This document shows, piece by piece, positions 7,438-34,911 of a DNA stretch of 64,000 bases; within the stretch, counting starts at the first letter, position 1; each line of letters begins with the position of its first letter. The translations under genes and the position numbers were made by a program. The notes beneath the pieces were generated by a model. The model searched no databases. It was given only the letters and a program-made list of their open reading frames with translations, and had not been told where the DNA came from. The DNA comes from an uncultured Spirochaetales bacterium (lineage in GTDB: Bacteria > Spirochaetota > Spirochaetia > JABEVK01): the NCBI GenBank assembly GCA_964624355.1, contig CAZUXL010000002.1, forward strand, positions 37,485-101,484. The letters are read 5' to 3'.

Positions 7438-8430
7438 TTATTTAGCGGGCACCACGCAGTTTCTTCCCGCATTCTTACCCCGGTAAAGAGCTTCATCGGC
7501 TTTCCTTAGAACTTCTTCTATGGATTGCCCGTCAAGTGCATCGGCTACTCCAAAGGTGAGGGAAATGCGCATTTCCTTTCCTCGGTAGAGGAATTTACCC
7601 GCATTAAGCTTGGTTTTTAGCTTTTCGGATACGTCTATCCCGTGTTTTTTGTCGGTTTCTGGAAGAATCATCAAGAATTCTTCTCCTCCCCAGCGGGTTA
7701 CATGGTCGTGGACCCGGACTTCTTTTGCCATTACTTTTCCCACTTCACTTAAGACATAGTCCCCACATTCATGGCCGTAGGTATCGTTGAATATTTTAAA
7801 GTGATCGATATCCGCCATGACCAGACAATAGGATTTCTGGTTCCGATGGTACCGGCTCTCCTCTCTTTTTAGTAAATCCATGGCTTGACGGCGGTTTTCT
7901 AATTTCGTCAAAGGATCGATTTTTGCCAAATTTTCCAAATCATTCAAGGTGACCTTAAGTTGGTTTTCCACCTGTTTTCTCTGGTCGATCTCTTTTACCA
8001 GATCATGATTCACCTTTTCCAGGAGTTTTTGGGATTTTTTTAAGGTAAGTTGGGTTTGTACCCGGGCTAAGAGTTCTGCACTGCTGGAGGTTTTGGAAAC
8101 GTAATCCACACCCCCCACTTTAAAACCCCGAACGATATCCTCAGGTTCAGAGAGTGCTGTAAGGAAAATCACGGGAATTGAGGCGGTTTTTGGATTTCCT
8201 TTCCAAATTTGACACATTTCATATCCATTTAAATCAGGCATCATCACATCTAAAAGTATGAGGTCAAACTCCTGCTGACCCACCAGGTGGAGAGCTTCCG
8301 AACCTGATTCCGCTTTGTAAACTTCGATACCGCGGTTTTCCAGTTGAACCCCAATTTTTTCCAAGTTGATGAGGGAATCATCCACCACAAGGACTTTCTG
8401 TTTTTCTTCACTCATCGGGGTATCGCTCAT
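7438..8430 (-). CDS. Response regulator with diguanylate cyclase domain (REC-GGDEF, PleD/WspR-like). Start trimmed to the internal ATG at 8430.
   Basis: REC motif KVLVVDDS...LLDVMMP. Active GGEEF (RWGGEEF). The first 98 codons of the listed ORF run antisense through the HD-GYP gene, so the real start is most likely at 8430 or 8415. Confidence 0.85.
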   Translation of the reverse strand: MSDTPMSEEKQKVLVVDDSLINLEKIGVQLENRGIEVYKAESGSEALHLVGQQEFDLILLDVMMPDLNGYEMCQIWKGNPKTASIPVIFLTALSEPEDIVRGFKVGGVDYVSKTSSSAELLARVQTQLTLKKSQKLLEKVNHDLVKEIDQRKQVENQLKVTLNDLENLAKIDPLTKLENRRQAMDLLKREESRYHRNQKSYCLVMADIDHFKIFNDTYGHECGDYVLSEVGKVMAKEVRVHDHVTRWGGEEFLMILPETDKKHGIDVSEKLKTKLNAGKFLYRGKEMRISLTFGVADALDGQSIEEVLRKADEALYRGKNAGRNCVVPAK

Positions 8431-9634
8431 TGATTTGTTTGATGGCAGGAAGGGCTTCAAAGAAGATTTCCACCAGTTCCGGGTCAAATTTTGTTCCAGA
8501 CATTTTTCGGATCTCCTCCAATACATCGGATTCGCCCCAGGCTTCCTTGTAAACGCGTTTGCTGGACAGGGCGTCATAAACATCCGCAACGGATACAATT
8601 CTACCCCAGATGGGAATCTCCTCGCCCACACGCCCCAGGGGCTTGCCCTGGGCATCAGCTTTGATAACCGCATTGGTAAAAGGATCAATCCAACCGGGGT
8701 AACCAGTCCCATCCCAATTCTCATGGTGGGTTAAGGCCACTTCCGCTGCCACTTCGTCAAAGGTGGACTGTCGATCGCTAAACAGCTGGGCACCCGAAAC
8801 CGTGTGGGTTTTCATGACTTCATATTCTTCCGGGGTGAACTTCGCAGGTTTTTTTAAAATGAGGTCGGAGATCGCGACTTTACCCACGTCGTGGAGCATG
8901 GCGGCCATTCTAAAGGTATCCTGGTTCTTTTGAAGTTCTTTGTCCGTAATCCCGCGGCGCCGGGCCCATCTTTCGTAGATCAAAGCTGCGTATCCCGCAA
9001 CCCGGTTTACGTGGGGGCCTGTTTCCTTGGGGTCCCGGAGTTCTGCCATGCGGATCATCCGGAGAATGATGGTTCTCGTCAGTTTTGCTCTTTCGAGGGA
9101 AACCACCGCATTACTGGCAAAATGGGTGATCAAAAGCTCGTCTTCACTTCCGAAAGGTCTAACTTGATTGTTTTCATCCCTGGCGTTGATGATTTGAATG
9201 ACCCCTACGATTTGGTTGTGCCCTGCCGTAAGAGGAATAGTCAAAATGGAGGTGGTTTTGTAATCCGAAAGTTTGTCGTAGATGGGGTTGAAATTATAGG
9301 GGGTATTTTTTCTTATTTTGTAGGCATCGGGAATATTTAATACTTTTCCTGTACTGGCCACGTATCCGGAGATGGATTTTTTATCCATGGGAATTTTAAA
9401 AATGGAGTAGATTAATTTCTCTCCGGAGGGGAGCTCCTTTTCCTTGGTTTCGTTTTGTGAATATTTAATCACCAGGTGGTTCCCTTCGACCAAATATAAG
9501 GATCCCGCGTCAGCCCTACAGGTACTTCTGGCACCCCGGAGTATTTCTTCCAGAACCAGGTCAAGATCCTGAATCTGGTTCAGCTTGGAGTCCAGTTCCA
9601 CAAGCATGGCCAGCCGAGCATTTTCTGTAATCAT
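8408..9634 (-). CDS. GAF-domain HD-GYP c-di-GMP phosphodiesterase
   Basis: N-terminal GAF. HD...HHENWDGTGYP signature (HD-GYP). Overlaps the start of the downstream REC-GGDEF gene, which suggests an operon. Confidence 0.85.
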   Translation of the reverse strand: MITENARLAMLVELDSKLNQIQDLDLVLEEILRGARSTCRADAGSLYLVEGNHLVIKYSQNETKEKELPSGEKLIYSIFKIPMDKKSISGYVASTGKVLNIPDAYKIRKNTPYNFNPIYDKLSDYKTTSILTIPLTAGHNQIVGVIQIINARDENNQVRPFGSEDELLITHFASNAVVSLERAKLTRTIILRMIRMAELRDPKETGPHVNRVAGYAALIYERWARRRGITDKELQKNQDTFRMAAMLHDVGKVAISDLILKKPAKFTPEEYEVMKTHTVSGAQLFSDRQSTFDEVAAEVALTHHENWDGTGYPGWIDPFTNAVIKADAQGKPLGRVGEEIPIWGRIVSVADVYDALSSKRVYKEAWGESDVLEEIRKMSGTKFDPELVEIFFEALPAIKQINERYPDE

Positions 9635-12997: not shown

Positions 12998-13663
12998 TTA
13001 ACACAGCAAGCCCGATTCCTGAAAGCTGTAAAAGGAAGTCTGGGTAAAAATGAGGTGATCCAGGAGGGGAATTCCCAGGATCTGGCCAGCCTCCCAAATT
13101 CTTCTGGTAATATCCCTGTCCTCCCGGCTGGGATCTAAATTCCCCGAAGGATGGGAATGGGCCACAATGACTCCGGCGGATCTGTCCTTGATAGGGCCTG
13201 CAAATACTTCCCTTGGATGGATCAAAGTTCTGTTGAGCAAACCAATGGTCAACAGCCGGGTTCTAAGCACCTCATGGGCCCCGTTTAATGAAAGACAAAG
13301 AAAATGCTCCTGGGGGCGGTCGGCGTACCTGCGAAGAATGGTATAGGCATCCTGGGGGAGTCGAATTTTTGGTCTATGGGGAAGGTAGATCCTTCGGGTC
13401 AGCTCCAAGGTCCCCACAATTTGGCCAGCTTTGGAATGTCCTATACCTTTAATTTGAATAAGCTTTTTATAGGCTTCCAAACCTTGGTGTTTATCTAAAA
13501 CTGCCAGGCAAGCAGGGGCAAGATCTTCAATGGAAGCTTGTGCACACCCAGAAGAGAGAATCAAGGCCATGAGTTCCTGGTCAGAAAGTCCCTCGGGACC
13601 CAATTGTTTTATTTTTTCCCGGGGTCTGAGGTGGGGTCGGGGGGAGCGTAGTTCTTCATTCAT
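12998..13663 (-). CDS. radC: RadC-family JAMM/MPN+ protein (UPF0758)
   Basis: JAMM motif HSHPSGNLDPSREDRDIT. N-terminal HhH region. Confidence 0.85.
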   Translation of the reverse strand: MNEELRSPRPHLRPREKIKQLGPEGLSDQELMALILSSGCAQASIEDLAPACLAVLDKHQGLEAYKKLIQIKGIGHSKAGQIVGTLELTRRIYLPHRPKIRLPQDAYTILRRYADRPQEHFLCLSLNGAHEVLRTRLLTIGLLNRTLIHPREVFAGPIKDRSAGVIVAHSHPSGNLDPSREDRDITRRIWEAGQILGIPLLDHLIFTQTSFYSFQESGLLC

Positions 13664-17666: not shown

Positions 17667-19379
17667 TCAACCTTTAAATCGCTTGGACGCCTGATTCTCC
17701 AGCTTTTCCAGATCCCCCAACAAGGGGGAAAGTTCTTTCTCGGATAAAAACAACTTTTTCGTTTCCAAGGCTAGGCGGGAGTAGATGGTTTGGTACTTTT
17801 TAAAAGCAAATTTTCTTAGGGTCCAAAGAAGTCTTCTGGCGAGATTTTTTTCCTTGGGAAAGTTCTGGAGAAGATCCAGAAGAACTTGTGCTTCCTCCCC
17901 GTGATCTGAGCAGACCAGGGTTTCCAGATCCTTTGCAAAAATTTCCAAATCTTCGGTGGGCCAGGCTTCCAAGTCTTCTTTTCCCAGGTTAAATTTCCAT
18001 AGGTGTAGTGTCCCACAGGTGAAACTTCTATTATTACCCTGCCAGTGAAACGCTTCCCTCTGGTTCCATCCCCGGGATTTAATCTTTTCTGGATGAAAGG
18101 AGACCCCGAGCAGTGCCTGGATTTTTCGAAGCAGTAGAAACCGGCGAACCCTCACGGCCGATCCAGAACCTGGGACGGATGAGCGGTCCAATATGAGAAC
18201 CAGTTCGGAATTGTGAACGGCCCTGAGGGGACTTTGTCGTCCTCCCCGGTATTTTACATAGGGCTGAATGACCAGATCCACCTTACCGGATGAGGAAAGG
18301 ATTTCATACATTTCCTCAAAAGGAATGATTCCTTCAGTATTGTAGCTTAAAACGATATGCCGGGCATCGGCTTGGTCCAAAAGGGCTTTAAGGGATTTAG
18401 GTGCTTGAGTTCGTACACAGTAGGGACTGCGGCGCTCAATCCAATCCTGGCGTATTCCCGCCTTGTTTTTCAAAATTCCTTGGGGTGTGAAATTCAAATC
18501 TGCTTCCGGTTTATCCCAGAGGGTGAGGGTATTCAGCAGGTGGTAGTTTGAACCGTACTGGTGCTGATTGTAAGGGGGATCCAAATAGATCAAATCTGCG
18601 GTTTGATTCTTTAAAAATTCCTGAGCATCCAACCCAAAGACTTGGGCTCCTGGACCAGAGTCCCAAAGCTCTGGATTTTCCCATGTCATGGGATGAAAAA
18701 TCCGTTTTAATGCATCTCCCCCGTGACCTCCAAAGCCCTTATGAAAGGCTTTAAATACGCCGGAAGTATTGGAATGGGCGGAAGCTTGATAGATCAAAGG
18801 GGCGATTAAGAATACTTTTTCCCGGCGTTGCTCTTCCGGGAGTTCCCAACCGGGATACCATGATTCGATGAGGGATCGTGCTCGGTCCAGATATTGGCCG
18901 TTGGACGGGGTGAAAAACATCCGTTCTTTTGTATAATCAGCGGTGTCCAAATGGGCGGGAGAGTAATATTTTGAAAGGTACTCCTGGGCAGGAGGGGGCG
19001 AATTCAGTAGTTCCCGCAGGTGTTGTGCTCCTCCCCGGGAACCAAACCAATTATTGACCTCTTTAGGGGTGAAAGCTGTATGGGCCTCCGTAACCAGCCG
19101 GGCATAGGGTTCCCAGTCATTGGCCCCCACTTGATACCCTAAAACCCTGCCTAAACGGGCTACTGCTCCTGAACCGCAAAAAGGATCGAGAAACCTTGTT
19201 CCAGGACCGTGACCTAAACCTTGAAATATCCCTGATAAAAAGGGAAGGAGTGACCTCTTGTTTCCGATATAAGCGATGAGTTGCCTTGTGAGGTAGGGAT
19301 TTGATACAAAGGAAGGATTAACCACGGGGTAATTTACCAGAAACAGAGGGAATTTTCCAGAGCAGCAAATTTTGAACAC
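17667..19379 (-). CDS. N6-adenine DNA methyltransferase of the T4-Dam/D12 class with a roughly 250 aa uncharacterised C-terminal extension
   Basis: Motif X YIGNKRSLLPFL (T4 Dam has YTGNKQSLLPEL). Motif I DPFCGSGAV. Motif IV LDPPYN. The order X–I–TRD–IV is the alpha class. No adjacent endonuclease gene. Confidence 0.75.
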   Translation of the reverse strand: MFKICCSGKFPLFLVNYPVVNPSFVSNPYLTRQLIAYIGNKRSLLPFLSGIFQGLGHGPGTRFLDPFCGSGAVARLGRVLGYQVGANDWEPYARLVTEAHTAFTPKEVNNWFGSRGGAQHLRELLNSPPPAQEYLSKYYSPAHLDTADYTKERMFFTPSNGQYLDRARSLIESWYPGWELPEEQRREKVFLIAPLIYQASAHSNTSGVFKAFHKGFGGHGGDALKRIFHPMTWENPELWDSGPGAQVFGLDAQEFLKNQTADLIYLDPPYNQHQYGSNYHLLNTLTLWDKPEADLNFTPQGILKNKAGIRQDWIERRSPYCVRTQAPKSLKALLDQADARHIVLSYNTEGIIPFEEMYEILSSSGKVDLVIQPYVKYRGGRQSPLRAVHNSELVLILDRSSVPGSGSAVRVRRFLLLRKIQALLGVSFHPEKIKSRGWNQREAFHWQGNNRSFTCGTLHLWKFNLGKEDLEAWPTEDLEIFAKDLETLVCSDHGEEAQVLLDLLQNFPKEKNLARRLLWTLRKFAFKKYQTIYSRLALETKKLFLSEKELSPLLGDLEKLENQASKRFKG

Positions 19380-33476: not shown

Positions 33477-34049
33477 TTAGAACGAATACCGGTAGTTTAA
33501 GCCTAGTCCAGCGTTTTGATAGTTTTTTCCATCCATACCAAAGTAACCGTAGGAGGCATAATTCCATAAGCCTTCGAGACCTAAATGATGACGCTGCTCA
33601 AGTTTTACTTCCATCCCCAAGGCTATTCTTGTATTATGTGCCAGAGCTCGTCCCGAAACTCCTGCTAGAATCCCTTGATTTAAAAGAATGGAATAGGAAA
33701 GGTATGGGAGGAAATTCCCTAGATCTCCCCAGGATTTTTTCCAAAAGTGCTGGAAGGTAAAGCCATAGGAGAAACTCATGAGTCCGGGATTGGAACCGGG
33801 ATGGAGTTCATACCGCAGAAGATTTATACCGAGAAGATAATCTTCACTTAAGTGGTAGTTGTAAGTGATCATACCGCCGTATCCCGGGGCTAAGCCACCG
33901 AAATCATCTTTATAAACATAAACCCCGGAAATTCCTAAGGTAATGCTGCGGTTTAATAGGTCCTCACTGAAGAGCGCATGGCAGGTAGTCATGAAGACTA
34001 GTAGGGTAATCATTGTTTTCATGGTTTGATAATAATACAATTTGAACAA
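33477..34049 (-). CDS. Small outer-membrane beta-barrel protein
   Basis: Signal peptide. Alternating aromatic/hydrophobic pattern. C-terminal ...YRYSF with a terminal Phe. Confidence 0.55.
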   Translation of the reverse strand: MFKLYYYQTMKTMITLLVFMTTCHALFSEDLLNRSITLGISGVYVYKDDFGGLAPGYGGMITYNYHLSEDYLLGINLLRYELHPGSNPGLMSFSYGFTFQHFWKKSWGDLGNFLPYLSYSILLNQGILAGVSGRALAHNTRIALGMEVKLEQRHHLGLEGLWNYASYGYFGMDGKNYQNAGLGLNYRYSF

Positions 34050-34097
34050 AAAGTTTACTATTGTTCAAAAATAAATGAGGGTGTCTTGAATCTCTGT

Positions 34098-34225
34098 TCA
34101 GAGCGAAGCGTCACCCGCCTTGCAGATATGGTGAAGAATGAACAATAAGGCGCCGGGCGGATCAGAGCGAAGCGTCACCCGCCTTGCAGATATGGTGAAG
34201 AATGAACAATAAGGCGCCGGGCGGA
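34098..34225. repeat. Perfect tandem direct repeat, 2 x 64 bp. Each copy ends with the 14 nt 3' end of tRNA-Cys.
   Basis: 34098–34161 and 34162–34225 are identical. The distal 14 nt of each copy (aaggcgccgggcgg) are the complement of the tRNA-Cys 3' acceptor/T-arm end. Confidence 0.9.
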
Positions 34226-34283
34226 TTCGAACCGCCGCATGAAGGTTTTGCAGACCTCTCCCTTACCACTTGGGTACGGCGCC
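34212..34283 (-). tRNA. tRNA-Cys (anticodon GCA), no encoded CCA
   Basis: Acceptor stem GGCGCCG/CGGCGCC. Anticodon loop CUGCAAA. T-arm GGCGG-TTCGAAT-CCGCC. Discriminator U73, typical of tRNA-Cys. Confidence 0.85.
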
Positions 34284-34353
34284 ATGACTTATGTCAAAAA
34301 CAATATAATGAAAAGTTTTCATTATGTCTAGGAGGTTTCTTGTGTGTTTTACC

Positions 34354-34911
34354 TCAGCGTTTAATCAAACTCATAAATTCTTCCCGGGTTTTTTGGTCTT
34401 TGCGGAAGGAACCCAGTACCGAGGAGGTGATCATCTGGGAATGCTGTTTTTCTACCCCTCTCATCATCATACACAGGTGTTTGGCTTCAATAACCACGCC
34501 CACACCCTCCGCGTCCACCGCATCCATGACTGCTTGGGCGATCTGCTCCGTCAGGCGTTCTTGAATCTGCAAACGCCGGGCGAAAAGATCGGCGATACGG
34601 GCAATTTTTGAAATCCCTAAGACTTTATCCTTGGCTATATAACCCACATGGCATTTCCCATAAAAGGGGAGGAGGTGATGCTCGCAAAGGGAAAATATTT
34701 CAATATCTTTCATAATGATCATGTGGTGGGTATGGGAGGCAAAAACCGCTTTATTCAGGATTTCCTGGGGATTTTGACCGTAGCCCTTGGTAAGGTACTC
34801 CCAGGCCTTTGCGGCCCTTCTGGGAGTTCCCAGCAGACCTTCCCTCTGGGGATCCTCACCCAGTTCCACCAATAATTCCCTCATCAGGGCTTCCACCCGT
34901 TCCTGGTTCAA
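34354..34911 (-). CDS. folE: GTP cyclohydrolase I
   Basis: CEHHLLPF and the overall FolE signature. 185 aa. Confidence 0.9.

Follow-up and report, generated by a model that had tools for sequence, protein, structure and literature searches.

The closest known analogue of the locus described here is the tyrT/tyrV-distal repeat array of Escherichia coli. In the K-12 genome (NC_000913), which was checked directly, the array lies downstream of tyrV and consists of 3.1 copies of a 178-bp unit with 95% identity; it starts within the tRNA gene itself. At the head of each unit is AATCCTTCCCCCACCACCA, which corresponds to the final 19 nt of tRNA-Tyr, beginning in the T-loop. The K-12 annotation places the small RNA rttR and the small ORF tpr inside these repeats.

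Two other kinds of known structure are also relevant for comparison. Spontaneous short tandem duplications, which are produced by replication slippage or illegitimate recombination at microhomology, can likewise be perfect, arranged head to tail and present in two copies, with 0-1 nt of microhomology, and can lie between genes where they disrupt nothing. The attL/attR pairs of tRNA-targeting elements (prophages, ICEs and islands) consist of an intact tRNA followed by a same-strand direct repeat of its 3' end, and the pair brackets the element. An intact tRNA with a displaced 3' fragment in direct repeat is used as the mark of an island end (Islander, PMC4383910; PMC9897764).

The DNA analysed here is a 64-kb stretch (the window) from an uncultured Spirochaetales bacterium. 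A tRNA-Cys gene and a short tandem duplication of its 3' end and trailer are located in the window, with the following features in the direction of the tRNA:

34302..34330, minus strand: promoter-like site TAGACA-17-TATATT (consensus scan, 10/12 matches), ending 19 nt upstream of the tRNA
34212..34283, minus strand: intact tRNA-Cys(GCA), 72 nt, without encoded CCA (ARAGORN; Rfam RF00005, 65 bits, full-length)
34162..34225, minus strand: tRNA-proximal unit copy, with the genuine tRNA 3' end TCCGCCCGGCGCCT at 34212-34225 and the trailer at 34162-34211 (TRF, exact matches)
34098..34161, minus strand: distal unit copy, with the orphan 14-nt tRNA 3' fragment at 34148-34161 and the second trailer at 34098-34147 (TRF, exact matches)
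34066..34116, minus strand: weak terminator-like element, with a hairpin at 34079-34116 and then UCAUUUAUUUUUG at 34066-34078 (fold -12 kcal/mol)

The preliminary description of this DNA reported a perfect 2 x 64 bp tandem ending in the 3' end of tRNA-Cys, which was accurate according to ARAGORN, Rfam, TRF and exact matches. TRF placed the array at 34098-34226, with a period of 64, 2.0 copies, 100% matches, 0 indels and a score of 258; no other tandem repeat was found in the window by the tandem-repeat scan. In the tRNA orientation, the unit is composed of TCCGCCCGGCGCCT (14 nt) and the 50-nt trailer TATTGTTCATTCTTCACCATATCTGCAAGGCGGGTGACGCTTCGCTCTGA. The 14 nt run from the final T-loop base, U60, through the 3' strands of the T stem and the acceptor stem to the discriminator U73. 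The order of the locus is the tRNA body, the first 14 + 50 nt, the second 14 + 50 nt, and the downstream DNA. Both copies of the 14-nt end are on the same strand (34212-34225 in the tRNA, 34148-34161 in the orphan). This end and the 50-nt trailer each occur exactly twice in the window, compared with no occurrence in any shuffle; a 22-nt tRNA 3' end gave a single match in the window with up to 3 mismatches allowed. The distal copy could not make a tRNA, because the remaining 58 nt are missing there. The whole repeat measures 129 nt at period 64, with one additional base (A, in the tRNA orientation) common to the junctions. Since the repeat runs one base beyond two units, the junction microhomology is 1 nt.

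Comparison with the E. coli array showed several similarities. In both cases, head-to-tail units extend from the 3' part of the T-loop through the 3' strands of the T-stem and the acceptor stem into the trailer; the units are on the strand of the tRNA and contiguous with the gene, and no integrase is involved. Because the units begin inside the tRNA gene, every additional unit carries an orphan tRNA 3' end at its start, of 19 nt in E. coli and of 14 nt at the present locus. The two arrays also differ: E. coli has 3.1 diverged copies (95%) of 178 bp with an encoded CCA, rttR and tpr; whereas the present locus has two perfect copies of 64 bp, with no CCA and no ORF. No homology to the rttR/tpr repeat was found, and the Rfam matches were to tRNA only (E-values up to 10; gathering score). 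The host lineage and the tRNA are different as well. The resemblance is one of architecture and not of homology, and the tRNA-Cys locus is like a younger and smaller version of a tyrT-type array. It provides a second, independent case, from a distant lineage, of a tRNA 3' end and its trailer being repeated in tandem.

The duplication is not confined to one assembly. Protein look-up of the gene downstream of the duplication yielded five more assemblies from the same spirochaete-like population in groundwater, and identical copies with equal spacing were present in 5/5:

ERZ27254732 (ENA): k141 contig of 40 kb, both copies present
ERZ909588: SRR1658462, PRJNA268031 groundwater metagenome, k127, both copies present
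ERZ28564339: 100-kb scaffold, both copies present
JGI 3300025030: both copies present
ERZ909590: SRR1658465, both copies present

The assemblies carrying the duplication differ by 1-24 SNPs. The four long ones show 8-24 SNPs pairwise per 6.5 kb and no indels; the region 34003-34368 is free of both, containing 0/32 of their variable sites. No single-copy version, and no empty or occupied variant, was found at the locus among the six assemblies. The duplication is real: several strain consensus sequences contain it, and it is fixed in the population sampled.

The tRNA-Cys gene follows pyrK, pyrD, a short-chain dehydrogenase (SDR) gene, folB and folE, all on the same strand. In the species-representative genomes, the best FolE matches were from Spirochaetales MAGs (up to 73% identity), and none of them has a tRNA-Cys adjoining folE. 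The closest relative found (L090) has a FolE with 90% identity (about 70% nucleotide identity) and keeps the order pyrK-pyrD-SDR-folB-folE. The synteny stops exactly at the folE stop codon (34354 in the window vs 6558-6564 in L090). In L090, a DUF2161 gene begins 6 nt past folE, followed by MCP, M20 peptidase and FecR genes; 0/4 of these are present in the window, and no tRNA was found within the 6 kb of sequence downstream of the L090 locus. The tRNA-Cys is therefore at a synteny breakpoint. The two genomes are further rearranged, with an FG-GAP gene in L090 only. The homologues of the 178-aa protein encoded downstream of the duplication are on short contigs without a tRNA, and their upstream DNA could not be aligned. 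A single-copy ancestral state was not recovered from these relatives (the FolE matches, L090, and the homologues of the 178-aa protein), and the direction of change (a copy gained) is therefore assumed.

The reading that we consider probable is a single spontaneous 64-bp head-to-tail duplication at 1 nt of microhomology, which would be neutral or nearly so and is now fixed in the sampled population. The duplicated block would comprise the final 1-2 T-loop bases of tRNA-Cys, the tRNA 3' end and the 50-nt trailer. It probably arose while the DNA was replicated, by template-switching or slippage, or else by unequal exchange between sister chromatids. The tRNA gene stays normal because the duplication is tandem: the proximal copy completes the gene, and the distal copy leads into the original downstream sequence, which includes a possible terminator hairpin and U-tract. 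This geometry keeps both the whole tRNA and the original downstream sequence, so that nothing functional is lost, and would explain why the duplication is tolerated. If the trailer is transcribed and terminated downstream, as we infer, the sole new product would be a 3' trailer longer by 64 nt, in which the orphan 14-nt tRNA fragment could base-pair with an upstream GGCGGGU, giving a new hairpin.

The perfect tandem, the lack of any DNA between the copies, the intact tRNA, and the E. coli K-12 precedent without an integrase all support a local duplication, as do its recurrence in the five other assemblies, the lack of a third copy in the data searched, the lack of mobile-element genes in the 21 kb downstream, and the lack of any Rfam match other than tRNA. 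The 1 nt of microhomology is no more than expected by chance. Compared with the known spontaneous short tandem duplications, the locus is distinct only in having one end inside a tRNA gene and in being fixed in the sampled population; otherwise it is indistinguishable from them.

Both breakpoints are located in the loops of small inverted repeats, the T-arm (T-loop) and CTCTG-AA-CAGAG. A mechanism based on hairpin-loop breakpoints was considered, but the DNA fold of the reconstructed single-copy sequence gave no confident structure (MFE frequency 0.004, z = -1.0). These loops were therefore not used as evidence for the mechanism.

The possible terminator has the form GGGUG...CUCU-GAAC-AGAG...CACCC, and its stability is not significant by RNA fold (z = -1.4). 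The consensus terminator scan did not call the hairpin at 34079-34116. This hairpin and the U-tract may act as a terminator. Since the distal breakpoint (34097/34098) falls in its apical loop, the hairpin is complete only behind the distal copy. Upstream of the gene, the promoter-like site at 34302-34330 is the only such site preceding the tRNA; these sites are no commoner than in shuffles, and this one is not evidence of function. The interval between the folE stop and tRNA-Cys also contains a perfect 10+10 palindrome at 34305-34325 (ATAATGAAAA c TTTTCATTAT), which overlaps the promoter-like site and is followed by ATTGTTTTTG on the minus strand. The palindrome could be an AT-rich terminator of the folE operon, or an operator; tRNA-Cys may or may not be co-transcribed with folE. 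Another inverted repeat is located at 34041-34069, between the duplication and the 178-aa gene and just upstream of the latter. It is perfect over 9 bp (TTTGAACAA / TTGTTCAAA, 11 nt apart), and may be an operator or a terminator.

An alternative is that the duplication is functional, either through a longer trailer giving rise to a small RNA, or through altered 3' processing or termination of tRNA-Cys, by analogy with the tyrT-distal RttR of E. coli. Processing would then also take place at the second tRNA 3' end and set free a 64-nt RNA bearing a T-arm-like hairpin. The E. coli analogue indeed has rttR and tpr annotated inside its repeats (PMC3318445). At the present locus, the junction of the copies forms a new hairpin between GGCGGGU in the trailer and AUCCGCC in the orphan (-15.8 kcal/mol); however, its stability does not exceed that of shuffled sequence (z = -0.54), and the same is true of the whole region (z = -0.63). 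The Rfam match to tRNA only also speaks against a functional reading. A coding role is disfavoured too: the unit length of 64 is not divisible by 3, and the ORFs along the tRNA strand are all trivial (up to 36 aa). Tandem repeats are prone to loss by slippage. The fixation of this one in every sampled strain despite such loss is a slight hint in favour of function and could reflect weak selection, but the perfect identity of the copies fits a recent origin equally well. With no structural, coding or conservation signal, and with the locus absent from the relatives found, a functional duplication is considered unlikely. A more specific form of the idea is very unlikely, namely that selection keeps the trailer because the second tRNA 3' end serves as a 3'-processing signal, the discrete 64-nt RNA being an independent counterpart of RttR or a decoy for tRNA 3'-end enzymes. 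Such an RNA is predicted to consist of the trailer and a T-arm-like hairpin with a single-stranded acceptor tail.

Another alternative is that the repeat is an attachment site, either a relic or a live attB: a tyrosine-integrase element targeting the 3' end of tRNA-Cys would have integrated and left, or would still use the site. The direct repeat of a tRNA 3' end beside an intact tRNA is the same feature by which island ends are recognised, and the tRNA-Cys is located at the synteny breakpoint with L090. Moreover, the unit begins at the T-loop edge, a region that some integrases are said to use (as Williams reportedly described in 2002). The details of the repeat are different from those of an att pair. 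Whereas attL and attR bracket an element, the present copies abut; the stretch between the two tRNA ends holds no element DNA but just the repeated 50-nt trailer, and the unit itself is mostly non-tRNA trailer (50/64 nt). The identity block of an att site should span the crossover region, which for T-loop sites is the whole 7-nt loop. The repeat starts at A59/U60 and includes only 1-2 nt of the 7-nt T-loop TTCGAAT, and a T-loop crossover would therefore lie outside the identity block. When a tyrosine integrase excises its element precisely, one attB is regenerated and never two abutting copies; the excision scar that the preliminary description had proposed among other origins is therefore not supported.

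The searches for an element associated with this repeat were also negative. A third copy of the unit, which the preliminary description had recommended looking for next to integrase or phage genes, turned up neither in the window nor among 241 million records of JGI metagenomes, nor in IMG/VR (trailer 25-mer). The 19-mer of the tRNA-Cys 3' end is on no IMG/VR contig, and the similarity detected in the phage database was to the tRNA body only. No attP copy was thus present where searched. The same description had suggested comparing the locus among strains and had held that relatives all carrying two copies, with no element ever inserted, would argue against its proposal; the six assemblies have the same two copies, with no insertion and no occupied/empty polymorphism, which comes close to that outcome. 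Together with the lack of a third copy, this speaks against the live attachment site that it had also put forward. Its remaining suggestion, a slipped-strand duplication of an attB core, stands in part: a slippage-type duplication is favoured, but the unit, mostly trailer and with 1-2 nt of the T-loop, does not resemble an attB core.

The genes downstream of the tRNA give no indication of a mobile element either. Beginning near the duplication, they encode the 178-aa protein, a 127-aa protein, a dehydrogenase, a membrane protein and an HWE-type histidine kinase, followed by a PP-loop protein, a TerC-family protein, a Y-family DNA polymerase (Pfam IMS/impB) and a nitroreductase. Farther away are a D-Ala-D-Ala ligase, a Mur ligase, a GGDEF/EAL protein, a D12 methyltransferase, DUF4230 proteins and RadC. 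The genes in these 21 kb are housekeeping or signalling genes. The Pfam scan of 20 ORFs of at least 150 aa and one ORF of 127 aa found no integrase, transposase or phage gene in the approximately 21 kb downstream (12998-34022). The mobile-element interpretation of the duplication is not supported by these observations, and an attachment site, whether relic or live, is most improbable.

Two genes in this region, located 15-21 kb from the tRNA, encode a RadC-like JAB protein (12998-13663) and a 570-aa D12-class adenine methyltransferase (17667-19379). Both families are frequent on mobile elements. No integrase or other mobile-element gene was seen beside them.

An assembly artefact was also considered, in which contigs were joined without trimming of the k-mer overlap, or a repeat with a copy number other than 2 was mis-resolved. 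The repeat is perfect, and its length is near the common k-mer sizes. The data come entirely from short-read metagenome assemblies, and arrays of at least three copies would collapse in de Bruijn graphs; the true copy number may thus exceed 2 if a longer array was collapsed by the assemblers. On the other hand, both copies are internal to the contigs in the five other assemblies, which carry different SNPs and derive from at least two sequencing runs (SRR1658462 and SRR1658465) and several pipelines (MEGAHIT k127 and k141, JGI). The 64-kb window has no other such repeat. Recurrence at one place in all assemblies is not expected of a joining artefact, which is therefore ruled out, and an artefact of either kind is very unlikely. 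The search with the trailer 25-mer revealed one JGI metagenome contig, Ga0209518_1041102 (2.1 kb), which is the same locus with 99.95% identity and has both copies internal. A multi-copy intergenic repeat family (REP/MITE-like) is not supported, with just two adjacent copies in 64 kb and the lone metagenome contig bearing the trailer 25-mer being the same locus.

A local duplication of this kind has little significance beyond annotation. It shows that an integrative element should not be deduced from an orphan tRNA 3' end beside a tRNA gene alone; methods that find islands by such tRNA fragments should require DNA between the repeats. If the trailer does yield a stable RNA, the two arrays would suggest a recurrent route by which small RNAs arise from tRNA trailers.

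Several minor observations were made on the surrounding genes. The gene at 33477-34022, downstream of the duplication, encodes a product of 178-181 aa with a signal-peptide-like N-terminus and the C-terminal sequence ...YRYSF. No Pfam family was found for this protein, and a search of 5.8 billion proteins returned just two homologues (52-54% identity), which are both on Logan contigs from runs that also contain the relative with the 90% identical FolE. The start of folE (34354-34911) is ambiguous: the longest ORF begins with TTG and encodes 185 aa, vs a 176-aa product in three other assemblies; the 185-aa ORF agrees with the Logan gene call and with the 90% relative. A folE-bearing Logan contig (L001, from SRR1658462) ends at 34249, in the anticodon loop of tRNA-Cys and not at a repeat boundary. 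This contig is uninformative on the duplication because of the position of its end, and the break was likely caused by k-mers common to the tRNA-Cys of other organisms in the metagenome. In the mechanical ORF list, the minus-strand ORFs at 7438-8724 (428 aa) and 8408-9634 (408 aa) overlap by about 317 nt; the pair may be a frameshifted gene or the result of an over-extended start.
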